Shown in pieces: positions 17,941 through 60,087 of a DNA stretch of 60,087 bases (positions within the stretch are counted from its first letter, which is position 1; each line of letters opens with the position of its first letter). This DNA is from a virus: the IMG/VR virus record IMGVR_UViG_3300045988_173323, one strand, 5' to 3'. A model generated the notes under the pieces. It did no database searches and had not been told where the DNA came from. It worked only from the letters and a program-made list of their open reading frames with translations. Made by a program: the position numbers and the translations under genes.

Positions 17941-18235
17941 ATATGGTGCGGAAATAGATAAATCCGCTATTGATAAAAACTTAAATAGAATTACAAATCA
18001 AATCTATAAGTTATTGCCAAGTAGAGAAGAAAAAACAGATTGGCAAAAGCCATTAACTACTATTATTGAAGAGCTTGCGGGAATGGATAGACTGTTATTT
18101 GACCAGCATGAAGTTCTGTTTCCGCTCTTGTGTAAATTAGAAGGATTATTCCTGCTATCAGAAGATAAAGATTTTTTTCTTTATAGAAGGACTATCTTCG
18201 AATGTTTAGGATTGATAAATAATATAAAGATATGA
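17930..18235 (+). CDS. head-tail joining protein candidate (101 aa)
   Basis: ORF track entry; it overlaps the neighbouring genes by 11 nt and 4 nt. Confidence 0.4.
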   Translation: MILKYGAEIDKSAIDKNLNRITNQIYKLLPSREEKTDWQKPLTTIIEELAGMDRLLFDQHEVLFPLLCKLEGLFLLSEDKDFFLYRRTIFECLGLINNIKI

Positions 18236-19191
18236 GTGGATTAGATAATTTAAAAACTAGACTTAATTATTATGGCGGAAGTAAGGAACGAAGGCTTATT
18301 AATGATAAACTTAGATCATTAAAAAAAGCTATGTATTCTTATCAAGGTCAAACCGCGATTCTTGAAGACGGACGAGAGTTTAAATGCTTAATTAACCCAA
18401 ATAAGTTAAATCCAGATTACGATAATAAAATACTTTCTATACCTTATAAAGATGTATGTTTAAATAAAGACAGATTAGGAAAAACTTCTGAAGCAGAAGA
18501 GGAGTTGGGGATAAAGTCTGGAGACATTATCTCTTGGAAAGAGACTAATACTAAATGGATTATTTATTTACCTTTTTTAGAAGAAGTTGCTTATTTTAGA
18601 GCGGAGATTAGAAAGTGCGAGGCTCAAGCTGAATTAAACGGGAAGAAATATTGGATTTATATTAGAGGTCCGGTAGAAACTACTATTCAATGGAATAAAA
18701 AGAATAATACAGTTTGGAATGACTTAAATAACACCTTAGTTTTTTATATTACTAAGAATGAGGAAACTTTAGATTTTTTTCATAGATTTAAGTTATTGAA
18801 AATAGAAGGACAAACTTGGGAAGTCCAAGACACGAATATCTTTTATGGGGAAGGTATTATTAAAGTTACTGTAAAAGAATATTATGAGAATCCGCTTCAA
18901 GATTATTATGAAGAAAGAGAAAAAGAAAAAAAAGAAGATTCAACAACAGAATCTGATATAGTAGGAGATGTTGAAGTATATCCATATGATATAAAAGAAT
19001 ATTCTTTAAAAGGAGATTTTAAAGAAGGTACTTGGAGCATAAATAATAATAAAGCGAAAATTATAGAAATAAAAAATAATTCTGCTATTGTAGAGGTAGT
19101 AACTGGAAAAAGTGGAGAATTTATTTTAACTTACAGTGAAAAAGATCAAGGAAAGGTTTTAACTTTAAAAGTAAAAATCAATTCTTTGTAA
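18232..19191 (+). CDS. structural protein (319 aa)
   Basis: ORF track entry; ATGA overlap with the previous gene. Confidence 0.4.
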   Translation: MSGLDNLKTRLNYYGGSKERRLINDKLRSLKKAMYSYQGQTAILEDGREFKCLINPNKLNPDYDNKILSIPYKDVCLNKDRLGKTSEAEEELGIKSGDIISWKETNTKWIIYLPFLEEVAYFRAEIRKCEAQAELNGKKYWIYIRGPVETTIQWNKKNNTVWNDLNNTLVFYITKNEETLDFFHRFKLLKIEGQTWEVQDTNIFYGEGIIKVTVKEYYENPLQDYYEEREKEKKEDSTTESDIVGDVEVYPYDIKEYSLKGDFKEGTWSINNNKAKIIEIKNNSAIVEVVTGKSGEFILTYSEKDQGKVLTLKVKINSL

Positions 19192-29500: not shown

Positions 29501-32038
29501 AGAGATTTTAATGCTTTTAAAAAGAAAGTTATTGATGGTATAAAAGATGACGATTTTTCGGGTCAAGTTAATGCTTTACTATCTAATTTTAGTTCATATG
29601 TAAAGCCAGATGGTACAGGTGAGATTCAAGCTTTAACAGATCAGCTTAATAAAACTAAGAGTGAAATTGAAATTATGAAAGCTGGTGGAAAATCAACTAT
29701 TTATGGAGATAATCTTGCTAAAGCTTATGAAGACTTAGAGAAATATGAAAAAAATGCGGAGACCGCGTTAGAAAACTATGCACAAATATCAAAGGATATT
29801 GAAGAGACTTACCTAAGTGCAATAGATAAAGCTCAAGAAAAACTAGATGAGCAATCAGAGCAATATGAATTTATATCTGATTTGATTGACCATGATAAAG
29901 ATGTAATTGGTTTAATCTATGGCGATAAAGCTTATTCTCAATTAGCTAAATATTATGAGATGCAAAGAAAAAATAATAATGACAATTTAGACTTTGCAAG
30001 AAAACAAGTAGAATTCTGGAAACAGAGAATGGATAACGAAGAAAAAGATTCCAAAGCTTGGAAAGAATATAAAGCTAATTATGAAAAAGCGGTTACTGAT
30101 TTAAACTCAAAAGTTAAGAGTTCTATTGAAGAAGTTATTGAAGAATATAAAAATACTATAAATAAAATCTTTGAAGACATTAACAAGAGATTAACTAACG
30201 GAAGCGGATTAGATTATGTTAAAGATCAATGGGATTTAATTAACAAAAATGCAGATATGTATTTGGATAGTATTAATTCTTCTTTTGAAATTCAAAAACT
30301 TCAAAATAAGTATTTAGATTCTATTGATAATACAAGTAGCTTATCTGCTCAAAAGAAATTAAATAACTTGATGAATGAGCAGATTGAAATGCTTAAAGCT
30401 AAAGAAAAGTTAACTCAATATGATGTAGATCGTGCTAATGCGTTATATGAAATAGCCTTAAAAGAAATTGCTTTACAAGATGCTCAAAAAAATAAGTCAA
30501 AAATGAGATTGAGACGTGATTCTCAAGGAAATTATAGTTATCAATATGTTTCTGATGAAGATAGTATAGCTCAAGCACAGCAAGAGCTATTAGAAGCTCA
30601 AAATTCTCTCTATAATTTGGATAAAGACAAGTATAAGAGTAATTTAGATGAAATCTATAGCACTTATTCTGAGTTCCAACAGAAATTATTAGAACTGTAT
30701 TCAGATACCACTCTTGCAGATGAAGAAAGAGAAGAAAAGAAAAAGTTATTAGCAGAACAATATGGCGAAATAATAAATAACTTAGTTGAACAAAATGAGC
30801 AAGTTAAGCAGAATCTCCAGGATACAACTTTCCAAGAATTGGCTAAAAAATATAATACCGATGTAGCTAACTTCCAAGGAATGTCAGATGAGGAAAAGAG
30901 AATCTTAATGGAGAGTATGATTCCGCAATGGAATTCAGGCGTTCAGCAAATGGCTGATAAATTTGCGGGAGAAGGCGGTTTTATTCCAACTTGTGAAAAT
31001 GCCTTTAAACAGCTAGATGAAGCTTTACTTACTTATAGAAATAACTTGAGTGAGACAAGCGAGCGTTCAGGGGTAGATTTTAACAAGATTGCTGAAGGAT
31101 ATGATATGAATATCCAAAAAGCTAAAGAACTTCTTGAGGAAAATGATAAGTTACTTGAAAAATACAAGGCTCAATTAGAAGCTGTTCAAGATGTACTTCA
31201 AGAAGTGAAACAGCTAGAAGAAGCTTATAGAGGTGTTGCGGCAGCTGCTATTTCTGCGGTTACAGAAGCTAATAAATTAAAGCAACAGAAGGATAAGGAA
31301 GCGAGAGAAGAAGCAGATAAAGATGCTGCTGGAAATGGCAAAAGCGGAGATAATAAAAAGAATAACAAAAGTAATAAAGGTGGAGGAAAGAATACAATCG
31401 TTGATGTCAAAGCGGATCCTTCTGATACTCCAGCAAGTGCAGTTGACATGGACGAAGGTAGTAAGAAATTTAAAGTTGGAGATAAGGTTAAATTACTAAA
31501 AGGAAAAAGATATTATTATACGTCTGAAGGAGCTGAACCTTCAGGAAATAGAGGAGCTGGACAGAATAAACCTGGTACGATTACTCAGATTGAAAAGGGA
31601 GCTAAAAAGCCTATTCATGTTCAGAGTAACGATGGTCCGTTTGGATGGCTTACAAAAGATGATATCAAGAAATTTGATACTGGTGGATATACTGGAGCAT
31701 GGAGTGGAAATGAAGGAAAAGTTGGTATTCTTCATCAGAAAGAGTTAGTCTTAAATAAAGAAGATACTAAAAATTTCTTATCTGCTATGAATGTTGTTAG
31801 AAGTTTAGATAGTGTTTTAGATACAATTAATGCATCTATGATGAATAGATTAGTTGGATTGTTAACTAAGACTACTACTTCTTTGAGCGGAATTTCCGCG
31901 TCTCAGGATTTAACTGTTGACCAGAAAGTTCAAATAGAAGCTTCTTTCCCAAATGTTCAAAACTCTGGAGAAATTGAAGAGGCATTTAAAAATTTAGTAA
32001 ATTATGCAAGTCAACATGCATATGACACTAAACGTTAG
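23507..32038 (+). CDS. tail tape measure protein (2843 aa)
   Basis: Extensive coiled coil. A central hydrophobic block reads LLSTLPLLIDGIQGL...AIALVVFAI. Near the C-terminus there is a Gly/Lys/Asn-rich linker, an about 70-aa SH3-like module (KVGDKVKLLKGKRYYY...GPFGWLTKDDI), then a typical TMP terminal block (GGYTGAWSGNEGKVGILHQKELVL). Confidence 0.85.
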   Translation: MAATNRIDFTVGFNTDQSGLSSIKKALEEIQKMTSGDLMSLNKGMDLSEANSRLSQIKESASQVQKALEKAFNADLGTLNVSKFNNELKNLDINKIYNDFNSAGSAGQTAFKNMTTQILTTNMQLKQTHSFLENMATTLSNTIKWNIASGAMNALTNNVQQAVNYVEKLDTSLNNIRIVTGKSAEEMRDFAESASQTAQELSASTRDITEGALIYYQQGDTDEDALAKAEITQKTANVSQISSEQAAEYLTAVWNGYKVANEAAAEGMDVYEKYVDKLAAVAATTASDLAESSMAISKVASAASSMGVDFDQLNAQIATIISVTRQAPESVGTALKTIYARMGDLAVDGVDEFGVSLGEVSGKMKTMGIDILDENGHLKEMGNVIEEVAGKWSTWTDEQRQAAAVAIAGKRQYNNLIALFDNWDMYTDALDTSKNALGTLEEQQDIYSERTEAHIQRMRTTFEDLYDSLLKPEAINKVVDGITFVVDKIATLVDNIGGGKTVLAELGSLGVRVFSKQIAGGISTTIANFKNVKSNAEQLNAQLEILQQYKGLSALDEDTKELVNMKQEIVDLGSVATTEQQNIANGFIEQINALQNQKKQLEENEEAAKNLYKALTNEELDLDSLRGKGEEAEKTDTYKEVQKQVAETQKQYKSLNKEASNYAGALTLATFNQRQASKDSSKQEEAIKSYEALTIAVKKYNDEVKKIVSSSPEVASAYENFNKKLKEYSELTGNAEKSVGELIATYPELSKAFKEVTEVSKDYASQAASDAQKVMKTAQDVAAGIGEKVKEKLDESRSAWKSFIDDVRNTAVIQSALDIAGSIGEIGSSIVSLKGIWDVFSDDSLSITEKLGQSFTVLLSTLPLLIDGIQGLRAGLITLAQNAIPALAGSSLTAWEAIGALFSASWIGWAAAAVGAIALVVFAIDHFTVSAKEAKEALESQFEEYEKAQQEVDELNSKLETTQERLKELYQISPDELTLAQKEELKTLEAQNAALTTQLELRKKVAKAEEKKTVEAAEQAAKKDAYGKELETASVDASVDRSQLAEVSGINIGNGRKVQDILLDDSVAKFQLGDEKAYEEYKAQAEYSISEIRDLLAKENTGINYDQREALKAYVSNLEFTLSSVNKKWENSSGEVSKSLTDAYNNALKQIPLLEEAGSKYVDYYYNIVEQYYRKTDTLGFATKQAFGEALSENKEAFDKMKAEIEKEGGIDVLLADDGKKLRNVIGSNAFESLKEYSTQTGLSLEILLKSLDEIDAKYDDIKDGASIAANTEKKEIEELTKKQEQYQEELDKKSVISEISTQLASEGSLDKLSKSKEGKATLETFNQMLEETAGIYNKNVSAAQEFEEAAARGVLGQIEYLEDLREADSNYYTEVIELEKQKLEAELDSNKKILEGYAHRKTELTMHINQLEDIREKEGSLSKEQLDELSNAQVELEAVTEKYNEYQNAVSDTKKEIEDTDWELKIDLAGAEEILSIGDSILSESDKIREAAMMIGEGYVVASEDAKQLAEVFPEIMENAEVLADGQIQLNQGVVEETLTGQQSILHGDVTTALSRIDSQVKILTAQKEAAEAELELWQSVYQGKVDMDSQALEAMAGGQKSFTEYLVDLGVKESDADKAVKEAMAGNYDELARIAKDASINMDQNLSQGIQDAANNSKTNLGAVVTNFMAVMRAAQEAGKAASASMNGKVAGEYISPDSLSGGGWSQNFTGKTLDAKFKGAENNITTTTKEFAADKINEAKIRINKYTKAISEMEALASRLRENEANSNLALESAKAGTGGSTPFEKDKSSKGGKGSGGKGGSSSDAQADKIDLLQDESEVYHDIDLEIKNITRDLDALQKKQEKLTGKELIKNLQEQLDLLEKQKKAYGEKIEVAEIQSGAYKSALKQEGVTFDADGNITNYFNIMKTKLDNVNKMITKYNGMSKAEQKKYKQTVEDAKKDYENFKKILSKYEDLKADEKEIKKQQQEAEDKATEVRIKKFTLKVDLALDTAQAERDFNAFKKKVIDGIKDDDFSGQVNALLSNFSSYVKPDGTGEIQALTDQLNKTKSEIEIMKAGGKSTIYGDNLAKAYEDLEKYEKNAETALENYAQISKDIEETYLSAIDKAQEKLDEQSEQYEFISDLIDHDKDVIGLIYGDKAYSQLAKYYEMQRKNNNDNLDFARKQVEFWKQRMDNEEKDSKAWKEYKANYEKAVTDLNSKVKSSIEEVIEEYKNTINKIFEDINKRLTNGSGLDYVKDQWDLINKNADMYLDSINSSFEIQKLQNKYLDSIDNTSSLSAQKKLNNLMNEQIEMLKAKEKLTQYDVDRANALYEIALKEIALQDAQKNKSKMRLRRDSQGNYSYQYVSDEDSIAQAQQELLEAQNSLYNLDKDKYKSNLDEIYSTYSEFQQKLLELYSDTTLADEEREEKKKLLAEQYGEIINNLVEQNEQVKQNLQDTTFQELAKKYNTDVANFQGMSDEEKRILMESMIPQWNSGVQQMADKFAGEGGFIPTCENAFKQLDEALLTYRNNLSETSERSGVDFNKIAEGYDMNIQKAKELLEENDKLLEKYKAQLEAVQDVLQEVKQLEEAYRGVAAAAISAVTEANKLKQQKDKEAREEADKDAAGNGKSGDNKKNNKSNKGGGKNTIVDVKADPSDTPASAVDMDEGSKKFKVGDKVKLLKGKRYYYTSEGAEPSGNRGAGQNKPGTITQIEKGAKKPIHVQSNDGPFGWLTKDDIKKFDTGGYTGAWSGNEGKVGILHQKELVLNKEDTKNFLSAMNVVRSLDSVLDTINASMMNRLVGLLTKTTTSLSGISASQDLTVDQKVQIEASFPNVQNSGEIEEAFKNLVNYASQHAYDTKR

Positions 32039-37014: not shown

Positions 37015-37398
37015 ATGGTAGATGTATTAATGGTATTTTTAAAATTAGTTATTATGGTTGTTGTTCCAGTAGCAACATCAGTTTTAACATTCTTATTAAA
37101 AACTTATCTTGAAGAACTAATTAACAAAAATGTTCAAAATGAAACTGCGGATGCTCTAAAGAAAGGACTAAATATTATTTTAGATTCAGTTAATTATGTT
37201 CAACAGACATACGTAGATAATTTAAAGAAAGAAGATAAGTTTACCGCGGAAGCTCAGTCTAAAGCTCTTCAAAGTGCGAAACAACGTGCTATTGAATTAA
37301 TGAATACTGATGTCCAATCCGCGATTGAAGCTAGTTACGGTAACTTAGATACTTATGTTACTACAGTAATAGAAAGTTTAATAAAGAAAAATAAATAA
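37015..37398 (+). CDS. N-terminally membrane-anchored coiled-coil protein (127 aa)
   Basis: The N-terminal hydrophobic stretch is MVFLKLVIMVVVPVATSVLTFLL. Confidence 0.45.
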   Translation: MVDVLMVFLKLVIMVVVPVATSVLTFLLKTYLEELINKNVQNETADALKKGLNIILDSVNYVQQTYVDNLKKEDKFTAEAQSKALQSAKQRAIELMNTDVQSAIEASYGNLDTYVTTVIESLIKKNK

Positions 37399-37436: not shown

Positions 37437-38837
37437 ATGGATAAAATTAAATCAGCAAAAATATCTTTAGATGATGGTGCTAGTTATAGTGAAGAAATTC
37501 CTATTGGGGTAGAAGCTTCTAATGTAGACCTACCAGATGGAACTAACTTAGGTGAATATTTAGAAGATATGAAAATTGCAAATGAACTTAAAGCAAGTTT
37601 AAAATCCGCCAGATTACGTAATTATCAAGGAGAAGTTCCTGTTGGAGCGAGAAGCTTGACCATTGGATCAAATAATAGGGCAGTTGGAGAAGATTCTTTT
37701 GCAGAAGGAAAAGCAACTTATGCAGTAGGTAATTTTTGCCATGCTGAAGGTAATGGTACTACTGCGGGTTTTAAGGATACTTCAACTGGTAAAACAACTT
37801 ATGCAGCACATGCTGAAGGCGGTAATACTCAAGCTTTAGGAATGTATTCTCATGCGGAAGGATATAATACAATAGCTAAGGCAAATATGTCTCATTGCGA
37901 GGGATTTGGTGGAGAGGCAAAAGGTACTAGTTCTCATGTAGAAGGACTTGGAACTATTTCTCATGCTTCATATCAGCACGTACAAGGAAAATATAATGTA
38001 GAAGATATTGAAAATAAGTATGCCCATATTGTAGGCGGTGGCACAGGCAGTTCTGAGGATCAAAGAAAAAATATTCACACTCTTGATTGGCATGGTAATG
38101 CCGTATATTCAGGAGATGTAATCATAACTGTTGAAGATGAACAGATACCTCTTTCTTCTATAGTCGACGTTTTTCGTACTGGAGCCGCGGCTCATAATTC
38201 TGTATACAGAGGAAAATTTTTAGGAGATACTATTACTTCAGAACAGGCTTCTGCAATTAGTGATGGAACTTTTAGAGATTTATATTTAGGCGATTATTGG
38301 ACTGTTAATGGAGTCAATTATAGGATAGCGGATTTTGATTATTGGATAAATAAAGGCTTTCCAGAGATTGATAAAACAAAAGTTCATCATCTTGCTATTG
38401 TTCCAGATAGTTGTTTAGCCACTGGACAAATGAATTCTTCCCTTACTACCAATGGTGGATATATAGGTTCTGGAATGAAAATAAATATATTAAATACTGT
38501 TACATCAAATTTACCAGATACTTTTAAATCAAGAATACTATCTCGTAGAGTTATGGTTGAAGGAACTTGGATTGTTACTACATTAGATCTAATGAATGAA
38601 GTGATGGCATATGGCTGCTATATTTATACCCATAACAATAATAAACAAACCTCTGACAATAGACAATTAAATTTATTTCGTTTCAATTCAGATTTACTAA
38701 ATATCAATAATAATTATTGGTTGAGAGATGTATCAAGCGAAACTAGGTTTTGTTTAGTTTCTCAATATGGAGATGCGAGTAGAGATGATGCTACTAGCAC
38801 TTATGACGTTAGACCTGTTTTTGCGATAGGTGGTTAA
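37437..38837 (+). CDS. tail fibre / receptor-binding protein with tandem (S)HAEG-x-NT beta-helix-type repeats (466 aa)
   Basis: The repeats read CHAEGNGTTAG...AHAEGGNTQALG...SHAEGYNTIAKA...SHCEGFGGEAKG...SHVEGLGTIS. Confidence 0.55.
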   Translation: MDKIKSAKISLDDGASYSEEIPIGVEASNVDLPDGTNLGEYLEDMKIANELKASLKSARLRNYQGEVPVGARSLTIGSNNRAVGEDSFAEGKATYAVGNFCHAEGNGTTAGFKDTSTGKTTYAAHAEGGNTQALGMYSHAEGYNTIAKANMSHCEGFGGEAKGTSSHVEGLGTISHASYQHVQGKYNVEDIENKYAHIVGGGTGSSEDQRKNIHTLDWHGNAVYSGDVIITVEDEQIPLSSIVDVFRTGAAAHNSVYRGKFLGDTITSEQASAISDGTFRDLYLGDYWTVNGVNYRIADFDYWINKGFPEIDKTKVHHLAIVPDSCLATGQMNSSLTTNGGYIGSGMKINILNTVTSNLPDTFKSRILSRRVMVEGTWIVTTLDLMNEVMAYGCYIYTHNNNKQTSDNRQLNLFRFNSDLLNINNNYWLRDVSSETRFCLVSQYGDASRDDATSTYDVRPVFAIGG

Positions 38838-38935: not shown

Positions 38936-39418
38936 GTGATAGAGCTATTAGCAAAATATTCTTTATCAGAAATTGTTGCTTTTTTAGTTACTTTTGCTTT
39001 GGCTATAAAAGGAGTTATTTCTTTTTATGATTGGGCAACTGAACGATTAAAAAAAGCTTTTAGTAAAGAAACTCAAAGAGATAAAGAAAAAGAAGTATTA
39101 GAAGAAAGATTAGTTTATGGAGCTGATAAAATGCGGGCTTTAGATAAACAACAGAAACAAACTAATGAACAATTAAAGGCAATTCATAAACAACTAGAAA
39201 TGTTAATTTCTTCTGATAAAGATGATATAAAAGCTGATTTAACTAAAGATCATCATTATTTTTGTTATAAAAAAAAGTGGATAGATGATTATAGCTTAGA
39301 TTGTATGCAAAGAAGATTTGAAAGATATGTAGAAGAAGGCGGCAATTCTTTTATTGAAAAATTGATGGATGAAGTTAAAGATCTACCAAACCAGCCGCCT
39401 TCTGATTTAGATAATTGA
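38936..39418 (+). CDS. N-terminally membrane-anchored coiled-coil protein (160 aa; GTG start)
   Basis: The transmembrane segment is IVAFLVTFALAIKGVISF. Confidence 0.4.
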   Translation: MIELLAKYSLSEIVAFLVTFALAIKGVISFYDWATERLKKAFSKETQRDKEKEVLEERLVYGADKMRALDKQQKQTNEQLKAIHKQLEMLISSDKDDIKADLTKDHHYFCYKKKWIDDYSLDCMQRRFERYVEEGGNSFIEKLMDEVKDLPNQPPSDLDN

Positions 39419-46877: not shown

Positions 46878-47441
46878 ATGGCGGAAACAAGCAGTTCATT
46901 TAAAGTTAAACAAAAAGATGGCACTTTTAAAGATTTTAAATTTAAAGTAGATACAATAAATGTAAAGTTATCCGACCAGTATCAAGGTACTCAAGGATTG
47001 GATAATTTAGAAGATTTTTTAAAGGCTGAAAAAGAATGGACAAGTAGCGGAAATCTTAATTATGAGATCTCAGATGGTACTGTCATTAGATTGACTATTA
47101 CCCCAGCCGCGAAAAAATTAGCAAATTGTCTTTATATTTTTTCTGAGTATAATGGTCATCCTATGGAAGTAAAACAGATTCCTGTAAATATGGTAGATTA
47201 TGAAAATAAGATAATTCAATTATCCTATACCATTGTAGATCCCATTACCCATGCTATGACTATTTTTCAATATAATCTAACTTGGGAAAATGATAAAAAT
47301 ACTTTAACAGTTTCTGATGTTCGTACAGCAGAATTAAAAGTAATTATAGAATCCGATGGTAGCAAAAATTTAGATTTTCAAGTGGTAGAAGGAAAAAATA
47401 ATAAAGCTTATAGATTAAGACAATTATGCCTTTCAAGATAG
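46878..47441 (+). CDS. tail-associated protein (187 aa), last gene of the structural operon
   Basis: ORF track entry; followed by a strong terminator. Confidence 0.4.
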   Translation: MAETSSSFKVKQKDGTFKDFKFKVDTINVKLSDQYQGTQGLDNLEDFLKAEKEWTSSGNLNYEISDGTVIRLTITPAAKKLANCLYIFSEYNGHPMEVKQIPVNMVDYENKIIQLSYTIVDPITHAMTIFQYNLTWENDKNTLTVSDVRTAELKVIIESDGSKNLDFQVVEGKNNKAYRLRQLCLSR

Positions 47442-47450
47442 TAAAATGCT

Positions 47451-47495
47451 AGCCAAGAATAATATTTATTGTTATTCTTGGCTATTTTTTTGTTT
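47451..47495 (+). terminator. rho-independent terminator ending the structural operon
   Basis: An 11-bp stem GCCAAGAATAA/TTATTCTTGGC followed by T8. Confidence 0.65.
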
Positions 47496-47622
47496 TATAC
47501 AGAATTTTATATACGTACTTTTTATTTTCTTACTTTAGGAGCCAAATTTACTTTTTAAATAAATTTTAATGAAAATTTCGGGCAAAGTGTAAAATTTATT
47601 ACTAGTCATTTTTCATATACCA

Positions 47623-48132
47623 TTGCAAGGGAAAGGAGTGAAAAGTAAAATGTATCAAAATTTACAACAACTGCAAAACAGTCCTTATTACCAATACCCT
47701 TATAATCAACAATATCAACGCCTGGCACAATTAGAACAACAACAACAGATGAATACTCCATATAATACTATGGTTTCTCAAAATCAAAGTTTTTTAAAAG
47801 GTAGACCAGTAGTATCCATGGAGGAAGCCCGTGCCGCACAGATTGATTTAGATGGTTCGTTGTTTATTTTTACTGACATAGGAAATAAGAAGATTTATAC
47901 TAAACAGATAAATCTTGATGGAACTGCTACTTTGAACACTTACTCTCTTGTAGAAAATGTAGCACCAATAGAAAGTTATGTCACTAAAACTGAATTTGAA
48001 AAAGCCATCTCATCAATTAGGGAAGAAATGGTTAAAAAGGAAACATTAGAAAGGAATGTAGATAATGACTCAATTAAACAGCAACAATCTGGAACAACTA
48101 AAAAAGCAGTTTGCAAACCATCCTCTTTTTAA
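47623..48132 (+). CDS. Gln/Tyr-rich (prion-like N-terminus) protein, 169 aa
   Basis: The N-terminus reads YQNLQQLQNSPYYQYPYNQQYQRLAQLEQQQQ; an RBS (AAGGGAAAGGAG) is present. Confidence 0.45.
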   Translation: MQGKGVKSKMYQNLQQLQNSPYYQYPYNQQYQRLAQLEQQQQMNTPYNTMVSQNQSFLKGRPVVSMEEARAAQIDLDGSLFIFTDIGNKKIYTKQINLDGTATLNTYSLVENVAPIESYVTKTEFEKAISSIREEMVKKETLERNVDNDSIKQQQSGTTKKAVCKPSSF

Positions 48133-48262
48133 TAGAGCAGAACAAATGGTATCTGGAAAAACGTCAGAAGAGATAGAACAAATTGCGAAAAATTTATGCC
48201 AGCAAAGAGGAATTAATTTTGATGAAGCATGGAAAATGTTTCAACAACAATTTAGATTTTAG
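48065..48262 (+). CDS. small helical protein (65 aa) overlapping the previous gene's 3' end
   Basis: ORF track entry. The 68-nt overlap is out of frame; the RBS is weak. Confidence 0.3.
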   Translation: MTQLNSNNLEQLKKQFANHPLFNRAEQMVSGKTSEEIEQIAKNLCQQRGINFDEAWKMFQQQFRF

Positions 48263-48316
48263 CGTACAAGGCTTTTATGGAAAACAAATTATAAATTATA
48301 AAAAAGGAGATTTATT

Positions 48317-49066
48317 ATGGGAATGATGAATGATGGATTAAGTATCGCTGATGCTATGGCTTTAGCAAAAGATGGAGATTGCACTGGATTCGGCGGAAAT
48401 GGTACTTGGATTTGGGTATTTTTCTTATTTTTCTTGTTAGCTTGGGGCGGAAATGGCTTCTTTGGTAATAGAAGTGGAGTAGATAGTGCCGCAGTTCAAG
48501 GAGCTTTAACAAGAGCAGATTTATTTGAAGGATTTAACAACAGCGACGTTCAAAGACAATTACAAGGATTATCTAATGGACTTTGTGATGGATTCTACGC
48601 TCAAAACACAACTATGTTAAATGGTTTTAATACTGTTGGTAGAGAACTTTGTCAAGGTTTTGGTGGAGTTAATAGTAATATGAGTTTAGGTTTTGCAGGA
48701 ATTCAATCTGCAATTAATGATGCAAAATTTGCGGATCAGCAATGCTGCTGTGAAACGAATCGCAACATAGACGCGGTTCGCTATGAAAACTCTCGTAATA
48801 CTTGCGATATTGTAAATGCAATTCGTGAAGATGGAAATACTACAAGAGCGTTAATCAATGCTAATACAATGCAGGATTTAAGAGATAAATTAGCGGATAG
48901 AGATAGAGATCTTATGACTGCAAATTTCCAACTAAGTCAACAGGCTCAAAGTGCTAATTTGATTGGAACATTAAGACCTTATCCACAACCAGCTTACATT
49001 ACTTGCTCTCCATATGAAGCTTCCTTATTAGGAAACAGAATTTATAATGGATGCGGCTGTAATTAA
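48317..49066 (+). CDS. membrane protein with a Gly/aromatic YjcZ-like TM segment and a Cys-rich C-terminus (249 aa)
   Basis: The TM segment is GFGGNGTWIWVFFLFFLLAWGGNGFFGN. The C-terminus carries QQCCCE ... GCGCN. An RBS (AAGGAGA) is present. Confidence 0.45.
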   Translation: MGMMNDGLSIADAMALAKDGDCTGFGGNGTWIWVFFLFFLLAWGGNGFFGNRSGVDSAAVQGALTRADLFEGFNNSDVQRQLQGLSNGLCDGFYAQNTTMLNGFNTVGRELCQGFGGVNSNMSLGFAGIQSAINDAKFADQQCCCETNRNIDAVRYENSRNTCDIVNAIREDGNTTRALINANTMQDLRDKLADRDRDLMTANFQLSQQAQSANLIGTLRPYPQPAYITCSPYEASLLGNRIYNGCGCN

Positions 49067-49080
49067 TCTTAATAGAATAC

Positions 49081-49099
49081 GGGCGGAGATTCTCCGCCC
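49081..49099 (+). other. GC-rich hairpin (GGGCGGAG-ATT-CTCCGCCC) without a U-tract
   Basis: Seen directly in the intergenic region between genes 48317-49066 and 49119-49568. Confidence 0.4.
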
Positions 49100-49118
49100 A
49101 AGAAAGGAAATATAAAAT

Positions 49119-49568
49119 ATGGGATATACAATAAACAAAGCATATCAAAAAAGCGTATTAAATGCTGTATCTACTGCGACTGAAACCTTAACAACAGGAC
49201 AACTTTTACCATTTACTAATATCAATATTTTAAATGGATGCTCTATCAATTATGTTGCTGGTTCCTCTTCAATTCAATTAAAGAAACCAGGAGTCTATTT
49301 AATTAGTGTAGATGCTACCGCCGCAGAATCTGGAACCGCGGGAACTGTTACTATGCAATTACAGAAGAATGGAGTTAATGTAGAAGGGGCAAAAAGTAGC
49401 TCTAATTCCGCGGCAGTAACAGACTTTAATGGAATGTCTTTTTCAACTGTTGTCAAAGTTTTACCTTCTTGTGCTTCTATTGATAATACTACTACTTTGA
49501 CTGTATTAAATACTGGCGTAGGAACTATTTATTCTAATACTAATATAACTGTAGTTAAATTATGCTAA
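49119..49568 (+). CDS. BclA C-terminal-domain-like (C1q/TNF-like jelly-roll) protein, 149 aa
   Basis: The T/S/G/V-rich beta composition, with VYLISVDATAAESGTAGTVTMQLQKNGVNVEGA, resembles exosporium BclA-CTD. The call is by recall only. Confidence 0.4.
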   Translation: MGYTINKAYQKSVLNAVSTATETLTTGQLLPFTNINILNGCSINYVAGSSSIQLKKPGVYLISVDATAAESGTAGTVTMQLQKNGVNVEGAKSSSNSAAVTDFNGMSFSTVVKVLPSCASIDNTTTLTVLNTGVGTIYSNTNITVVKLC

Positions 49569-49583
49569 TAAGGAGGCTATATT

Positions 49584-50129
49584 ATGGCAGAAATAGTATC
49601 TCCAAAAACAATAGTGGAAAATACGAGCGAAGATATAATGATTAAGATGATGGAGCAAAATTTAGAAGGAGTAATGTTTCATTTATTTGAAACAGACTTA
49701 TATGATTTATTAAAATTACCTGGATTTAAGGCTTTACATCATCACCAATCACAAGAAGAGACTGAAACTCTTGAACTTTTAAAACATAAATATATTGAGA
49801 AATATAAAAAATTTCCAATCTTAAAAACAAAAAGTATTGACCGTTGGGAAGAAAACGAGGATTTATATAAAGATTTATCTGAAGAAAAAATTATTTCTTT
49901 AGTGAAAGAATCTATGAAACAATACGCTGATTGGGAAAGCGAAGTTTTAGAACATCTATTACAATGGAAAAGAAATGTAGAAGATAGAAAGATCGTGCAT
50001 AAAATGATAGAAGATGTCATGCAAGAGATAAAGCATATAGAAACATTAATGGACATCTTAGAAGAACATGATTATAATTATCAATGTATCTGTGAAATCT
50101 CTGATTACCTTAGTCGTAGATATAAATAA
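49584..50129 (+). CDS. hypothetical helical protein (181 aa)
   Basis: ORF track entry; an RBS (AAGGAGG) is present. Confidence 0.45.
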   Translation: MAEIVSPKTIVENTSEDIMIKMMEQNLEGVMFHLFETDLYDLLKLPGFKALHHHQSQEETETLELLKHKYIEKYKKFPILKTKSIDRWEENEDLYKDLSEEKIISLVKESMKQYADWESEVLEHLLQWKRNVEDRKIVHKMIEDVMQEIKHIETLMDILEEHDYNYQCICEISDYLSRRYK

Positions 50130-50130
50130 T

Positions 50131-50158
50131 GGGAGCTATTTAGCTCCCATATTTTTTT
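50131..50158. terminator. bidirectional rho-independent terminator at the junction of the convergent late (+) and replication (-) modules
   Basis: Stem GGGAGCTA/TAGCTCCC followed by T7 on the plus strand. It overlaps the ruvC stop on the minus strand. Confidence 0.55.
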
Positions 50159-50651
50159 ATTCCCAAATAATTTTATTATTTAAAAGAATATATGCATAAC
50201 CTATTCCTATAGCATCTGCTTCATCATCATTTACTTTAATATTAAATTTTTCTTCTACAAATCGAATATCTTCAAGCTTTAATTCTTCTCTTTTGATTCC
50301 TTTTCCTGTGCGGATTCCACATGCAGAACGCCATTCACTTGGGTATAAATATTCAATTTTTATTTGTGGAAAATTATCATGTACAGTAAAAGCTATCGCT
50401 GCTTGAAGCCACATCAAAACACGATGAGTTTGAATATTTTGCAATCCATTTTCTGGTCTAACTTCCTCCAAAATAATTTTATCTATAGAATATTTCTTTA
50501 AAATTTCAATTAGTCCTTCTATCATTTTTTTTATTCTTGCGATAACATCTTTTGAAGAAGCTGTAATACAAGTATGATAAGTTAGTTTATTGTTTTCAAA
50601 AATAGCGAATCCGCTACTCTTGGAACTTGCGTCTATTGATAATATGTTCAT
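50157..50651 (-). CDS. ruvC: RuvC-family Holliday junction resolvase
   Basis: The N-terminal ILSIDASSKSSGFAIF (RuvC ILGIDPGSRVTGYGV), DKIILEEV (DYFAIEQVF) and C-terminal DDEADAIGIGYAY (ADAADALAIA) match the catalytic acidic residues of RuvC. Confidence 0.7.
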   Translation of the reverse strand: MNILSIDASSKSSGFAIFENNKLTYHTCITASSKDVIARIKKMIEGLIEILKKYSIDKIILEEVRPENGLQNIQTHRVLMWLQAAIAFTVHDNFPQIKIEYLYPSEWRSACGIRTGKGIKREELKLEDIRFVEEKFNIKVNDDEADAIGIGYAYILLNNKIIWE

Positions 50652-54802: not shown

Positions 54803-55393
54803 TTATTGTCCATGTATAAAATCTGCAATAGGTTCAAAAGAGTCAAACATACTAGGAGCATAATCAGATTCATTATAAAAAGTTATATATTCAAAATTAA
54901 TGTCTGAAAAATCTCTTTCGTCAGCAAGAAATCTTCGACAAATTTCTCTGCAATCTGGGTTATGTTCTCTTCTTAAAGCTCTTTTTAATCTTTCTTTTCC
55001 TGGTGCTTCTATTAAAACTGGTAGTACCTCTATTCTTTCATCTTTCAATAATTGCCTAATCCCTGAGATACTAAAAACACCAATATTTATTTTATCTTTA
55101 TCTAACTCTTGGATAGAAGTGCCATATAGCCATTTTTTAAAATAAACCGCATCTATTATATCTTTATTGCGAACCCGTCTTTCAAAATCATCACGATATA
55201 GAAAATAATAATCTATGCCATCTCTTTCGTATGCTCTTGGTGATCTAGTAGTACAACTAATAATTTCTTTTATTTCTGAATGATTGTAACACATTCGTTT
55301 TTTTATAGTATCTTTTCCTGCACCGCTCTTTCCGAACAGTGCAAGAACTTTATATTTTGACATTTTATTCTCCTTCCATACCATATCTAACAT
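54803..55393 (-). CDS. gmk: guanylate kinase-family nucleoside monophosphate kinase
   Basis: The P-loop GKSGAGKDT, the TTRSPRAYERDGIDYYF guanylate-kinase signature (TTRxPRxGExDGxDYxF), and the YGTS motif. Confidence 0.75.
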   Translation of the reverse strand: MLDMVWKENKMSKYKVLALFGKSGAGKDTIKKRMCYNHSEIKEIISCTTRSPRAYERDGIDYYFLYRDDFERRVRNKDIIDAVYFKKWLYGTSIQELDKDKINIGVFSISGIRQLLKDERIEVLPVLIEAPGKERLKRALRREHNPDCREICRRFLADERDFSDINFEYITFYNESDYAPSMFDSFEPIADFIHGQ

Positions 55394-56776
55394 GCTCTAG
55401 TTTCATATCTGAACCATTGACGTCAATAATCTTGTAGAGCTGATGGGTAGGGGTATGTTTATACGATTTAGTCTGAAATGTATCTCCACGCCTAAACCCA
55501 GTACACATTACTTTTGTTCCTCTTTGAAACCAGCCTTTTTCCATAACTTTTTTAGTTCCATCTTCTTGCTTTTCAGAAATTTGTCTCCCAAACATAGCAA
55601 AGTAATCTTTTGTAAATTTTACATTAACAACTCCAGAAGTTGTTAATAATGATATTGAAGAACGAGCATCATTTTTACTGATTACAGTGCCAATGATTTT
55701 ATAAGTCTTATAAATAGGGATTTCTTTTCCATTTCTTTTGAAAAAATAATCTACAACAGGCTCTTCGGGTAATTTAGAAAAATCTGAAATTCCATACTTT
55801 AAAGTATCAATATTTATTAATTCATGTGGATGATAATAAAAACATAAGCTTTCCATTTCCCACGCGGAAATATTTCCTTTAGCATATTTATTCCAAGAGT
55901 CAAGAAATAAAGCCTCATTAAATTCTTTTAATACTGTCTGTTGATTCTCTTTAAGCCAATCTCTAGCTCTATCCATGCCTTTTTGATACTTTTTATCCCA
56001 TTTGTTTTGTAAAATACAAACGCATCCGTTTATCACTTCAAGGTCTTCCATATCGTATCTTTGATTGTAGAATTTTTCACAAGCATCATCAAAGACATAA
56101 TATTTTCCAACTTTTTTCTCAGTTTTTAGATACTTATTAAAGAAAAATAATCTTTTCATACTATCTAAAGAAGGTGGAATTAAGTCTTTTTGAATTAAAC
56201 CATTAAAGTTTTGTAGCGTTAATTTCTTTTTTGGTTCACTAACAACAGACAGATAATATATCATTACAAGCACTCTTGGTTCAACATTTAATTCTTTTGC
56301 CCATTCTAATTCCAGTTTATCAAAAGCTCCGCTCTTTATTAAGGAAATCATTGCAGATTTATTTAAAGGACATCTTATCATAAAGTCTTTAATGCTTTTA
56401 TATGGTCTACCAGAAAAAATCTGCTCAATAATTGGTGCACCTACATTACTCAATGCTTTCATTCCAAAAAGAATTTCGTTGTTTTCAACATCTGGCTTAA
56501 AGCTATAGTCAGATTTATTTATATCAACTAAAGAAATTTTTATTCCTCTTGATAAAATATCTCCAATAGCCTTAGCTATTTTACTATAATCCGTAGATTT
56601 TTCTTTCTTTTTACTTTCTTCTGTTTCTTCTTCATTTTCAATATTATCTTCTTCTAAGGCTCCACTATTTACAATTAAACACGCGGTATTCCAATAGATA
56701 GGATTCCATCTTGTGGCTATGTATATAGTTTGAAATCCTATGAAAGAGTAAGCCAGGGCATGTATGCATAATTTAA
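55365..56776 (-). CDS. dnaE: DNA polymerase III alpha (DnaE-type) C-terminal exon (HhH + OB-fold region), downstream of the intron
   Basis: The translation upstream of the track start continues in frame as HALAYSFIGFQTIYIATRWNPIYWNTA...DINKSDYSF...EILFGM-KALSNVGAPIIEQI, matching the DnaE ...SHAxAYSxIGxQ... fingers and HhH region. The 5' limit at 56776 is the estimated 3' splice site (+/- a few nt). My reading of the displayed sequence near 56460 differed by 1 nt from the ORF track, and I trust the track. Confidence 0.7.
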
Positions 56777-56777
56777 A

Positions 56778-57992
56778 ATTACTGACTATTTTTTACAGAC
56801 GTTGTAGTGAGATTTTGGCTTTTCTCTTGTCTGCACACTATTTCCCAAAACGTATCAATAGTTTCAGTACTCCCCGTCTAACCAGGGATAGTCGATACAA
56901 CATTTTTCTTTTAATAGATTTATTTATTATCTCTAAGAGGGTATTTATATTTTTCTTTTTTATGAGAACGTCCTGCGTTAATATTTTTAATTGTTGCATA
57001 GCTTTTATTCCATTTTTTTGCGATATCTTTTAAAGATAAATCTGTTTCTAAAATATCTTTTATAATACCTTGAATCCAGATTTCATTTTTAGCTTTATTA
57101 CCACCTTTATCACAAAGAGGGTAGTTATCCTTATCACTATAAAAATATTTTCCTGTATTTATCATAGATAAAAATCCAGCTGATTTAATTCCAAAATCTT
57201 CTTGAATTGTTTTATATTTTTCTCCGCTTTTAATTCTATCTTTTATTTCTCTAATTTCTTTTTGAGAAAAGCGGCTTTTAGAATTTTTCTTTAAAGGATA
57301 ATCAAACTCTTCATTAAAATAATTTGTTCCAGTATTTATATTAACTAAAAACGTTCTTTTTAACTTAGGAAAATAAATTTTTTCAATATCATCATATTCT
57401 TCATCATTCATTAGACGATTTTGGATATCAATAATTTCTTCTTTTTTAAAGAGTTTAGATCGGTTTAATTTTTCTTCATACGTTAAAGGTTTTCTTTTAT
57501 ATCCTTGTCCGCCTAAAGTAATATTATATCCATTTTCATCTTTTAAAGAATGATAATATTGAATAAAATAAATTTCTCTTTCGTCAATATATTCTTGAGA
57601 TTCTCCATCAGCAATCTCTTCAAGAATATCAAAATTAAAATTATCCCAACCATATTTTCTTATGGCTGCGTGAAATGGCAAATTATAGCCAGAAGTTTTT
57701 TCATTAAAAGACTCACTTTTATGTCCATTTTTTCTTTTTTGAACATTATTAGTTTGTCCGATATAAATTTTACCATTTGTTTTATTTGTAAATTTATAAA
57801 TATAGTACATAATATTCTCCTTATACATTGTTTTACTATTCTCATGTATAACTGAAAAATACTATACCTCTATTAAAGAAATTTGTCACGAGATTTAACC
57901 CTCGTTAGCAATTAAAACCATATTTGCCAAATATGTAAATGTTTTAATTACCCCACTGATAAGTGGTTAAGTGTGTAAGCACCATTCACACA
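56778..57992 (-). mobile_element. group I intron (about 1.2 kb) in dnaE carrying a GIY-YIG homing endonuclease ORF
   Basis: dnaE reading frames lie on both sides. The insertion falls inside the conserved GY(S/G)F-NxS-HAxAY polymerase motif. In-frame stops follow exon 1 at 57986. A free-standing HEG with its own RBS lies inside. Flanking blocks of about 180 and 140 nt are compatible with a group I core. The boundaries are approximate. Confidence 0.7.
56920..57810 (-). CDS. GIY-YIG homing endonuclease (intron-encoded), 296 aa from MYYIYKFTN
   Basis: The classic N-terminal YYIYKFTNKTNGKIYIGQT...R...H...N...E GIY-YIG module is present. The C-terminal two-thirds looks like a DNA-binding extension. 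An AAGGAGA RBS precedes the second ATG; the track start at 57828 is 6 codons upstream. Confidence 0.8.
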   Translation of the reverse strand: MYYIYKFTNKTNGKIYIGQTNNVQKRKNGHKSESFNEKTSGYNLPFHAAIRKYGWDNFNFDILEEIADGESQEYIDEREIYFIQYYHSLKDENGYNITLGGQGYKRKPLTYEEKLNRSKLFKKEEIIDIQNRLMNDEEYDDIEKIYFPKLKRTFLVNINTGTNYFNEEFDYPLKKNSKSRFSQKEIREIKDRIKSGEKYKTIQEDFGIKSAGFLSMINTGKYFYSDKDNYPLCDKGGNKAKNEIWIQGIIKDILETDLSLKDIAKKWNKSYATIKNINAGRSHKKEKYKYPLRDNK

Positions 57993-60087
57993 ATGCTAAA
58001 GCTATATCCCATCTGCGGACCTATGCCATATTTCCATACATAGTCTCCGAGTTCTTTTCTTTTAGCTTGTTCAATAACCTTCTTTTTCAATTCTGGAATT
58101 TTACTCATTTGTTTTTTACCAACAATTTTTCTCGCGGTGTTGGCTTCAGATAACTTAAAACCGCAAATATCCTTATCCATTAACATACTCATTAATTGTT
58201 CTTGACTTGGCGGAACACCATAAGACTTTAAGAAATAAGGTTCTAATGTTTTCATCTCTTGAGGAGATAACCCCTCTCTTCTCATTTCTTGATACCAAAG
58301 ATCAATATTTTTTTTATATCTTACATATTTTTCCATTGGCGTTTCTTGACCTTTTTCACTAGTCATAAGTCTCATTAATCCATTAGCATCTGACATTTCA
58401 ATTATTGAGGCTGGCTTAATTTTTTTTGCAGCCTGACTGCCTACATCGCTATCAAATTGAAAAATATTTAAAACTGAGTTGTTTTGCAGTGCTTTCCAAC
58501 ATTTTTTATCTTCGATAGGTAAAACACTTGGATGAAAATATTTTTCATACACTTCTTTTAAAGATAAATCTGATTCAATTTCATTATTAGCCTGTAGTAA
58601 TTTAATTGTTTCTGCTAATTTATCCTGGACTTCAGTTACTAAGAAGTCATATTTTGTCATACCTGCTGCTTCGCACATATGAAGATCCCATTGCGTAATA
58701 ATTTCTCCTTTAGGAGTCCGCATAAAACATCCAAATTCATATGGGTCTTCATCAAAAAGGATTACTCCAGAAGCATGAGAACTCCTTTTGTTTACTAACC
58801 CTTCAATAGCAATCATAATATCTAATAAGCCAGGATATTTTTCTACCTCATTAGTAAACATCTTAATAGGCTTTCTATCTTTATCTGGGTTACCATTAAT
58901 GGCATCTGATAAAGACCATAAAAAACCTCTTTCACTTGGAATTAAAGAAGATAAAAATTGAGCAGTGTCAACATCAATTCCGTCTGGATACTCTTCACTT
59001 CTATATCCGCGACAAGCAGTTAAAATAGTTGATCGAGTACCTTCAGTTCCAAAAGTGGCTATCAACGTACATCCTAAATTTTTTCGAGATAAAACATCGA
59101 TATCTTTTTTAAAATTTTTTCCGCGTTCTTCCTTTATTTTCTTTAAAATTAAAGGTCTTTTACTTGGACTTAAATCTAAATCTATATCTCCAAGCTCTAT
59201 ACGCTCTTTATTTAAATATCTCCAGAAAGGAAGCTCCCATTCAATCGGATCTAGTTGAGTAATTCCCATTAAGTAATGATTTAATCCAGAGCAAGAACTT
59301 CCTCTTCCTGCACCTACCATACTTCCGCAATCCCAAAATAAATCAACATAATGTTGTAAAGTATTAGGATAACTAAACATATTAGTTTCAAGTTTTTTAC
59401 TAATAGTATCTTTAATATCAGCTTCTTCTTCTAATCGAGATAAATAAGTATTGTTATATTTATTTATTTCTTGGAGTTTTTGCAAACAAGTATTAACCCA
59501 ATATCTGTCTTGAATATCATCACTTAATAATAATTTATGTAAAGTAGGATATTCCTTTAAAGAGTTATCTTTAGGGTAATCTCTAACTTTAACTTTTGGA
59601 ATTGTTTGTTTATGTTTTAAATTATAATTTTCAATTTTAGAATAAATTTCTAAAGAATTATTACATAATTCTTCATAATTTAACTCAGAAGGCTTTAAAT
59701 TTTCAATTATTTCTTCTTCTGATTGCAAGTAACTATATTCATAAAACTCATCAACTTCTCGTTCTCCACCCTTAGAATTTAAGTAAGATTTATGAACAAA
59801 TCTATCTTCTTTTTTTAAATAATGAGCATCTGTGCCAAGTACCATTTTTATATTAAAACATCTAGCAATAGATAAAAGTCTCTTATTTACCATTACTTGA
59901 TCTTTACTTTGTCCTGGAGCACACTCAATATAGAAATCTTGTCCAAATAAAGACTTGTTCCATAAAATAAAATTAACTATTCTATTATGAGCTTCCCCCG
60001 CAGATTCAACATCTTTCATCTGCTCTGCTAAAATTAATTGTTTAGTTAAAGTGCTTAATTCTCCGCCCAAACATGCTGTTGTTGCAA
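57993..60087 (-). CDS. dnaE: DNA polymerase III alpha (DnaE-type) N-terminal exon (PHP domain + polymerase core), truncated by the window end
   Basis: The PHP motif GTDAHY and the palm/fingers region are present, ending ...GIGPQMGYSF immediately before the intron. The ORF remains open at 60070-60087, so the start lies beyond the window. Confidence 0.8.

Follow-up and report, generated by a model that had tools for sequence, protein, structure and literature searches.

Our interest in this locus was aroused by five consecutive genes, here called X, Y, Z, W and V, that follow the structural operon in a 60,087-nucleotide (nt) stretch of virus DNA (IMG/VR record IMGVR_UViG_3300045988_173323; this whole stretch is referred to below as the window, and its features are collected in Table 1). 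A holin and an endolysin are usually found at this position. The initial annotation recognised spore-coat- and exosporium-like proteins instead, and proposed that the genes constitute either a novel lysis system or an interface with host sporulation. What do these five genes make, and for whom? Our analysis identifies them as one copy of a mobile accessory cassette that occurs in thousands of gut phages of unrelated backbones and that is neither a lysis system nor a spore module. The genomic and structural classification of the cassette is well supported; its proposed function, a membrane-anchored complex acting on the cell envelope, is a guess.

The host of the phage is Megamonas funiformis, on the basis of the RefSeq assignment of the phage's own proteins: accessions from this species exist for X, W, V, the holin of the window and both halves of a split Z (WP_440972056-061, WP_440971767). 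M. funiformis is an anaerobic, non-spore-forming and Gram-negative-staining bacterium with 31.5% G+C (PMC8638592), compared with 30.4% in the window and a similar 32.9% in the cassette. SPbeta-like phages (Enterococcus phage H1, Geobacillus virus E3 and gut phage Phass-1) have large terminases that share 44% identity with that of the present phage, one of whose proteins contains a YonG_N domain. The complete phage genome is SPbeta-like, measures approximately 135-141 kb and is seen as hundreds of metagenome contigs. The window contains no tRNA genes and no Rfam families at gathering score.

A collinear cassette shared by unrelated phages

The open reading frames (ORFs) and the terminator that closes the upstream tail-fibre operon bear out the description of five co-directional genes following the structural genes, and the view of these genes as a separate moron-like unit is likewise supported. 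All five have homologues elsewhere and are therefore real genes. Related loci were collected with iterated local hidden Markov models from annotated phages, metagenome contigs and 51 loci in GTDB genomes. The order X, Y, Z, W, V is constant in these loci, with matches in 54, 35, 60, 29 and 12 ORFs respectively; X stands immediately 5' of Y-Z, the Y homologues occupy the same position throughout and W follows Z. The comparison shows X-Y-Z to be the invariable core of a collinear cassette. Where W is absent, its place is taken by an unrelated family (fam0, 108-153 amino acids (aa)) with Cys-rich ends, the Cys-rich N-terminus being joined to a beta domain. One of V and DUF7841 (PF25223, 4.7e-27) is often found farther downstream, the latter standing in place of V at other loci, and two more small families recur. 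Profile comparison with hhalign revealed no hidden homology among the cassette families (W against fam0, 7.7% probability; V against DUF7841, 0.1%), and a search of fam0 against the PDB returned nothing significant. A resemblance of fam0 to the Ena pilins (DUF3992) had been suspected and was given no support by Pfam or the PDB.

The cassette is found in unrelated backbones and at differing genome positions. Within the SPbeta-like lineage of the window (relatives L063-L066) it always comes after the tail-fibre genes. The siphoviruses of Clostridium perfringens carry it in the early region, after an antirepressor and approximately 4 kb downstream of the amidase and holin. Dulem virus 36 has it right after the receptor-binding protein, with the holin and hydrolase 17 kb off, and Dulem virus 39 has it after the integrase. 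Some prophages end with the cassette, which then lies downstream of Phage_holin_4_1 with GH25 or of Amidase_2 and adjoins host genes or a serine recombinase. A T7-like prophage on a 2.5-Mb Dialister contig displays the order T7 tail fibre, 183-aa protein, X-Y-Z, three small transmembrane (TM) proteins, glucosaminidase, small and large terminase, and in the crAss-like genome cr116_1 only a Z-like protein was detected, near a holin, an L,D-carboxypeptidase and terS. The named hosts comprise Clostridia, Negativicutes (Dialister, Megasphaera, Phascolarctobacterium, Selenomonadaceae), Treponema, Fibrobacter, Gastranaerophilales and Bacteroidales. Some small contigs of metagenome-assembled genomes (MAGs) may be mis-binned as to host, but not the large host contigs in which cassette phages are integrated (Dialister, 2.5 Mb; Phascolarctobacterium, 545 kb; Megasphaera, 205 kb). 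A plasmid match was obtained for only 1 of 72,556 plasmids, and the cassette is almost restricted to phages. These distributions show that the cassette is horizontally mobile, having been transferred among phages of unrelated backbone and among one-membrane and two-membrane hosts alike. One 125-kb contig of a Faecalibacterium MAG (CAKTGQ010000006.1; loci L060 and L061) contains two cassette copies of the same local layout, 38.7 kb apart, which may be tandem or duplicated prophages.

The cassette often forms a transcription unit of its own. Of the 47 distinct related loci, 27 have a terminator-like hairpin upstream of X, and at least 13 loci have, directly upstream of the cassette, a stand-alone gene of 75-95 aa for a helix-turn-helix (HTH) protein of the GerE/LuxR/sigma-region-4 type (for example 8978-9220 in L007, 4911-5192 in L012 and 4910-5143 in L018), often with a terminator between the two. 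This upstream protein matches VpsT and GerE at 1e-7 to 1e-6; its gene is absent from the window. At its other end the window's cassette is bounded by a bidirectional terminator, beyond which lie minus-strand genes for replication and nucleotide metabolism (RuvC-like, dUTPase, NrdG, NrdD). The hairpin between Z and W may serve as an RNA-stability or processing element.

In its genomic behaviour the cassette follows the classical pattern of a moron-type accessory module. Lambda bor/lom and the SPbeta sublancin cluster, the latter after the lysis genes, are morons or lysogenic-conversion cassettes situated at the end of late operons. With these the cassette shares its position after tail or lysis genes or at a prophage end, its flanking terminators, its patchy spread over backbones and the possession of a membrane protein. 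It differs from them in comprising 3-7 genes, in retaining 30-60% identity across host phyla, in being kept where an integrase was not seen or annotated, and in encoding proteins without homology to any known moron product. Comparison of the cassette proteins with known lysis, defence and spore systems gave no match. A search of PADLOC-DB v2 gave no significant match for any of the five, the only hit being that of Y to Cas3b (E-value 0.011, 12 bits). Our literature search did not find a paper naming DUF7841, the PHROG identifiers or such a cassette, and the genomics paper on C. perfringens phages is silent on the cassette genes (PMC3118219). The component families have been catalogued only as PHROGs of unknown function.

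The component proteins

Z belongs to one of the larger uncharacterised phage protein families, for which there is no Pfam entry. A homology search produced 7,864 matches among 8,000 scored candidates, none of them with a Pfam domain, and an exhaustive profile search resolved the family into 2,230 clusters at 50% identity and thousands at 90%. The best 150 homologues are all stand-alone proteins of about 110-300 aa. Z matches phrog_16490 (9e-29) and has no significant match in Pfam, PDB or PADLOC searches. With a function assigned to Z, a recurring block of gut-virome 'dark matter' would be annotated.

From N- to C-terminus, Z consists of an acidic N-tail, a single hydrophobic segment (residues ~31-43, IWVFFLFFLLAWG, nt 48407-48445; mean Kyte-Doolittle hydrophobicity 2.4 over 13 residues) with Gly-rich stretches on either side, a Gly-rich linker, 11-residue GF-containing repeats in variable number around a conserved GLCDGFY motif, a CCC block, long helices, a Pro-rich motif and a low-complexity Gly/Tyr/Cys tail, where two or more Cys are present in 42 of 52 distinct homologues. 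Alignment of the homologues reveals three near-invariant blocks (GLCDGFY, CCCETNRNIDAVRYE...NTCDI..AI...G..TRALI and RPxPxPAYITCSPY) and the invariant motif CCCETNRNID, whose CCC is encoded at nt 48743-48751. The protein has 10 Cys, including CCC143-145 and those of the C-terminal GCGCN. The initial annotation had described Z as a membrane protein with a YjcZ-like segment and a Cys-cluster tail. Its membrane segment with Gly-rich flanks and its Cys-cluster tail were recovered, and the resemblance to YjcZ was not, there being no NCBIfam family at E-values up to 1. YjcZ (TIGR01732) was accordingly rejected as an identity for Z, the profile match being lacking and the likeness compositional only. 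An AlphaFold2 monomer model of Z, which is unreliable (predicted local distance difference test (pLDDT) 47) and too poor for a fold search, shows residues 31-43 as a TM helix and residues 75-114 and 126-218 as further helices. A poor monomer model together with long helices would fit an obligate oligomer; the helical periodicity is weak and uninformative.

In a sister strain (L070) Z is interrupted by a clean 1,067-bp insertion (17714-18780, minus strand of that locus), which corresponds to window position 48749|48750 and divides Z into ORFs of 144 aa and 65 aa. The insert carries an ORF for a 247-aa GIY-YIG-like endonuclease and matches RF00028 Intron_gpI over the full model length with 43.4 bits (E-value 2.5e-9), below the gathering score of 50. 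RefSeq holds the split allele from M. funiformis (WP_440972058, WP_440972060), the window represents the intron-less allele with an empty homing site, and both alleles are common in metagenomes. Homing introns typically occupy the most conserved part of conserved phage genes. The targeting of the CCC motif by such an intron indicates that Z is a conserved and expressed gene. In addition, this polymorphism constitutes a natural marker of phage strain dynamics in Megamonas populations.

X had been described as a Gln/Tyr-rich protein, and the composition of its first 47 residues agrees, with 66% Q+Y+N+P (15 Q and 7 Y). This Gln/Tyr/Asn/Pro-rich N-terminal region is followed by a core conserved among homologues (KGRPVxSxEEARAAQIDxDGSxxxFTDxxNKKIYTKQINLDGT), a helix and a variable tail. 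The TTG at 47623 given in the ORF list is probably not the true start, and the ATG is preferred. X matches phrog_21718 (3.9e-8) and has 911 homologues, one of which is 100% identical and named Megamonas funiformis; searches of the PDB (with sequence and profile), Pfam and NCBIfam gave nothing significant. Y is characterised by the conserved motif NPxFxRxxQMxxGKxPEQ...RNxAxxRG and has no family match in Pfam, PHROG or NCBIfam scans. The start of Y overlaps the final 68 nt of X in another frame, an overlap that amounts to only 4-8 nt in loci L001 and L003. These start-stop overlaps suggest that the translation of X and Y is coupled.

For W, the predicted likeness to the C-terminal domain (CTD) of BclA, with its C1q fold, was confirmed by model, structure search and profile. 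The AlphaFold2 model, built with 12 homologues (pLDDT 86.6; predicted template modelling score 0.80), is a C1q/TNF jelly roll. Its top PDB matches in Foldseek are F-BclA-CTD (9H38), BclA-CTD (1WCK/3TWI) and ExsFA/BxpB, with E-values of 5e-9 to 6e-7 and template modelling (TM) scores of 0.65-0.76, and these exosporium proteins outrank the metazoan C1q/TNF domains. The sequence profile alone reached 7e-4 to 1.7e-2 against the PDB (9H38, 7e-4; BclA, 5e-3), and the single W sequence gave no match to the Pfam BclA_C model. Comparison with BFVD identified stand-alone gut-phage proteins (TM score 0.84-0.87), some of them auto-named 'BclA protein', and a third-party annotation record applies the same label to one member of a W cluster. 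PSC(C) and a C-terminal KLC are conserved in W. The shared jelly roll places W alongside BclA-CTD, the F-BclA tip and ExsFA/BxpB (PDB 1WCK, 9H38, 7R5I, 8D02), and W further resembles ExsF/BxpB in being a stand-alone domain of approximately 150 aa. Unlike BclA, it has neither a collagen-like stalk nor an exosporium leader, sequence inspection and NCBIfam having found no signal peptide, no collagen GXX repeats and no leader (TIGR03720), and it is encoded by a phage of a non-sporulating host in an operon with a membrane protein. The 9H38 structure is the F-BclA-CTD of Sleutel et al. 2025; the clefts of the ExsF trimer accommodate the Pro-rich leader peptides of BclA and F-Anchor (PMC12357932).

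The fifth protein, V, had been called helical, which is correct and can be made more specific. A profile of 12 homologues matched archaeal and bacterial ferritins in the PDB at 6e-4 to 4e-3 over its full length (profile positions 8-180), suggesting that V is a remote ferritin-like four-helix protein. V aligns over its full length with the four-helix fold of prokaryotic ferritins (PDB 5LS9, 3KX9, 2JD6, 1VLG). Unlike these, it possesses its own invariant set of H33, H52, E118 and E148, roughly one per helix by our reading of the alignment, and the canonical di-iron ferroxidase ligands (E, ExxH, E, ExxH) are not aligned with these residues in the printed alignments. There is no Pfam match to V, including the ferritin clan. 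CotJB was considered as an identity and rejected, since the Pfam CotJB model is matched by neither Y nor V nor any of the 12 V homologues; Pfam and NCBIfam profile searches for YjcZ and CotJB both remained without a match.

Possible function of the cassette: envelope, lysis or spore

We propose, tentatively and with somewhat less than even confidence, that the five genes are a copy of a self-contained mobile accessory cassette building a membrane-anchored complex with an envelope-level function (exclusion or envelope control). Z would insert in the cytoplasmic membrane through its single hydrophobic segment and oligomerise through its long helices, and disulfides or bound metal at the invariant Cys layer (CCC...C) and in the Gly/Tyr/Cys tail would lock it. 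X and Y, as translationally coupled partners, and a trimeric W head would dock on Z. By analogy with the BclA/F-Anchor leader on ExsF, the W trimer could plausibly dock onto the RPxPxPAYITCSPY tail of Z. The peripheral subunits would be exchangeable (W or fam0, V or DUF7841), with X and Y as fixed partners. The resulting complex would alter the envelope of the infected or lysogenic cell and thereby aid the phage late in infection or during lysogeny, and would neither degrade the wall nor coat spores.

A number of observations weigh against this proposal. No good sigma-70 match was found in the 165-nt A+T-rich spacer between the upstream terminator and X, unlike other parts of the window, in which clear TTGACA/TATAAT promoters are present, and no shared promoter motif upstream of X was seen by eye across the loci. 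The monomer model of Z is, as noted above, unreliable. The charges flanking its hydrophobic segment (N-tail mean net charge ~-2.3, C-flank approximately neutral) only slightly favour one topology, N-out/C-in. Exclusion proteins usually co-vary with their targets, and Z is highly conserved across host phyla. Finally, the cassette abuts tail-fibre genes without a gap in several phages (L003, L039 and L032), where a late structural role would also fit.

Such a role is the most probable of the alternatives, although itself unlikely. The cassette proteins would be cytoplasmic, freed by lysis and cross-linked through their Cys/Tyr-rich ends into a virion-associated or released fibre, decoration or matrix, with W or its beta-rich alternative as the head. 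The usual location of the cassette after tail-fibre or receptor-binding genes agrees with this, as do the C1q-type heads that tip many phage and giant-virus fibres, the Cys-rich or Gly/Tyr/Cys termini of Z, W and fam0, the lack, on inspection, of a signal peptide at the N-termini of X, Y, W and V, and the presence of the cassette in phages in which no integrase was seen or annotated (the window lineage, Dulem virus 36 and cr116_1). It is difficult to reconcile with a hydrophobic segment in Z that is strongly TM-like, with a genome position that varies (the early region in C. perfringens phages, beside the integrase in Dulem virus 39) and with the terminator that parts the cassette from the structural operon in the window.

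The question of lysis begins with the statement that no canonical lysis cassette is present, of which one part stood and the other did not. A holin of the LLH family is encoded in the window (Table 1); it scores 40.4 bits against PF09682 (Holin_LLH; cut-off 24.9), matches phrog_13712 'holin' at 1.2e-21, is named 'phage holin, LLH family' in RefSeq and has the expected shape of one N-terminal TM segment followed by a helical tail. The absence of a recognisable endolysin holds for the scans made: 41 ORFs of the window, almost all of them 90 aa or longer, were scanned with Pfam, and PHROG scans were made as well, without an endolysin domain being recognised. The genes of the right arm were also negative in precomputed Pfam hits; for the smaller ORFs of the left arm, and a few there of 90-112 aa, the coverage was the precomputed annotation of sister contigs alone. 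A lysin is also absent from the roughly 14 kb inspected beyond the window ends (about 8 kb and 6 kb), so that this negative covers the 60 kb of the window and ~14 kb of a genome of ~135-141 kb. No endolysin adjoins the holin. The gene following the holin (37437-38837, 466 aa) has the look of a YadA-head-like fibre with a weak DUF6273 C-terminus; a PDB search of its product for endolysin likeness was negative. The plus-strand gene at 38936-39418, 1.5 kb downstream of the holin, specifies 160 aa with a TM segment at the N-terminus and a coiled coil (weak DUF4446; phrog_4105, unknown function); in this two-membrane host its product might be a lysis accessory or a spanin-like protein.

The cassette itself coexists with separate holin/endolysin pairs in at least seven phage lineages, among them Clostridium phage XP41-N3, Dulem virus 36, Dulem virus 39, prophages with Phage_holin_4_1 and GH25 (L007-L010) or with Amidase_2 (L012), the Dialister T7-like prophage with Glucosaminidase (L039) and crAss-like cr116_1. 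Searches of Pfam, NCBIfam and PHROG identified no muralytic domain in X, Y, Z, W or V, and Z has no holin-family match, the holin of the window being a separate gene. A lipobox ORF that might act as a spanin partner was not found when all start codons in 47400-50200 and the whole plus strand were scanned. Because the cassette always accompanies an ordinary holin/endolysin set and never takes its place, and because neither a muralytic domain nor a lipoprotein partner belongs to it, it is not the lysis system of the phage, and a novel lysis system with Z as its effector is unsupported.

A lesser contribution to lysis, suggested by the neighbouring lysis genes in T7-like and crAss-like genomes, is quite unlikely. 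Z would be membrane-disrupting or spanin-like and would complete envelope breakdown, with the other proteins as regulators. In the Dialister prophage X-Y-Z lies just 5' of the three small TM proteins and the glucosaminidase, thereby occupying the fibre-to-terminase interval in which T7 keeps its holin and spanins, and the Z-like gene of cr116_1 is 1-2 kb from the holin and L,D-carboxypeptidase. The outline of Z is that of an i-spanin of the Rz/Rz1 type (N-terminal TM segment, long helices, Cys-bearing tail), and the phage infects a two-membrane host with no endolysin or spanin recognised in the window. However, Z differs from spanins in having no lipoprotein partner, in being longer (200-300 aa) and in always occurring with X and Y. 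Its family reaches its greatest abundance in the phages of single-membrane hosts, and the cassette abounds in those of Clostridia, where spanins would be useless. Complete holin/endolysin pairs are found 3-17 kb from the cassette, which is often equipped with a separate terminator and a dedicated HTH regulator, and the five proteins match neither muralytic nor holin families.

A more elaborate reading of the cassette, which we consider decidedly unlikely, is that of a hitherto unrecognised, phage-borne, self-assembling envelope apparatus with a membrane anchor, Z as a Cys-locked helical stalk, a trimeric BclA/ExsF-type head (W or the alternative with Cys-rich ends) and X and Y as assembly partners. 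It would have an evolutionary link to the exosporium nap and anchor proteins and would be used by gut phages irrespective of sporulation in the host, possibly to give infected cells, membrane remnants or particles that meet oxygen a coat or tether capable of being cross-linked.

It is improbable that the cassette is an anti-phage defence or abortive-infection module with Z as membrane effector and W as sensor. Its moron position at prophage ends, the small regulator of its own that is often present, its TM protein and its patchy, mobile distribution are features that such a module would have, but the five proteins are without a significant PADLOC match, the cassette is almost confined to phage genomes, it is present where an integrase was not seen or annotated and stably kept in the SPbeta-like lineage, and for a defence gene it is very highly conserved in sequence.

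Highly improbable, and for the M. funiformis phage largely refuted, is the reading of these genes as sporulation-interfacing, with proteins that decorate or hitch-hike on the spore coat or exosporium: the nearest structures to W are exosporium proteins (F-BclA, BclA, ExsFA/BxpB), Cys-rich Z and Tyr/Gln-rich X recall coat proteins, V is ferritin-like, the upstream regulator of other phages matches stand-alone GerE (1.2e-6) and some hosts, such as C. perfringens, are spore-formers, but M. funiformis forms no spores, W lacks the exosporium leader and collagen repeats, the CotJB and YjcZ profiles are unmatched, LuxR-type HTH domains and C1q folds are widespread outside sporulation, and the cassette resides in Dialister, Phascolarctobacterium and Megasphaera prophages on large host contigs. 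These three genera do not sporulate. A module kept by phages of non-sporulating genera is therefore not a spore interface, and the 'spore-former host signature' of the initial annotation is removed because the host is non-spore-forming. It follows that BclA/ExsF-type domains in phage genomes are unusable as a marker of a spore-forming host.

Further features of the window

Table 1 Coordinates of the cassette genes and associated features in the window
Feature	Position	Strand	Remarks
Holin, LLH family	37015..37398	+	PF09682 Phage_holin_6_1, 4e-10; among tail-fibre genes
Intrinsic terminator closing the structural (tail-fibre) operon	47450..47484	+	15-bp stem and T-run
X	47650..48132	+	160 aa; ATG start, AGGAG 11 nt upstream
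Y	48065..48262	+	65 aa
Z	48317..49066	+	249 aa; hallmark protein of the cassette
Empty intron homing site in Z	48749..48750	+	codon 145, third Cys of CCC; blastn breakpoints against L070
G+C-rich hairpin between Z and W (CGGGCGGAG-ATT-CTCCGCCCA)	49080..49100	+	without a T-run on the plus strand
W	49119..49568	+	149 aa
V	49584..50129	+	181 aa
Bidirectional terminator	50129..50150	both	where the cassette meets the minus-strand genes

Several minor observations were made elsewhere in the window. DNA polymerase III alpha is encoded on the minus strand (55365-60070) as two ORFs, a PHP/DNA_pol3_alpha/finger part and a 365-aa HHH_6 part, with a GIY-YIG ORF (56920-57828) between them; a group I intron was not detected at this split gene at E-values up to 0.1. 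An early-region gene for a 251-aa PARG-like protein (PF10021) is present as an extra in sister strain L069 (4421-5176) and absent from the window strain (compared with L068 and the left arm of the window). A 2,843-aa tape-measure-type protein (PF10145 at residues 196-409) is encoded on the plus strand at 23507-32038, and the gene after it specifies a 1,537-aa protein without a family match. The gene-poor stretches at ~860-1530 and ~5900-6170 contain arrays of a repeated TTTTGTGCA / TGCACAAA box beside TTGACA-type motifs, with repeats of 53 nt, a spacing of 65 nt and a 55-nt inverted repeat (1241-1295 / 1312-1366); these arrays look like early promoter/operator arrays.

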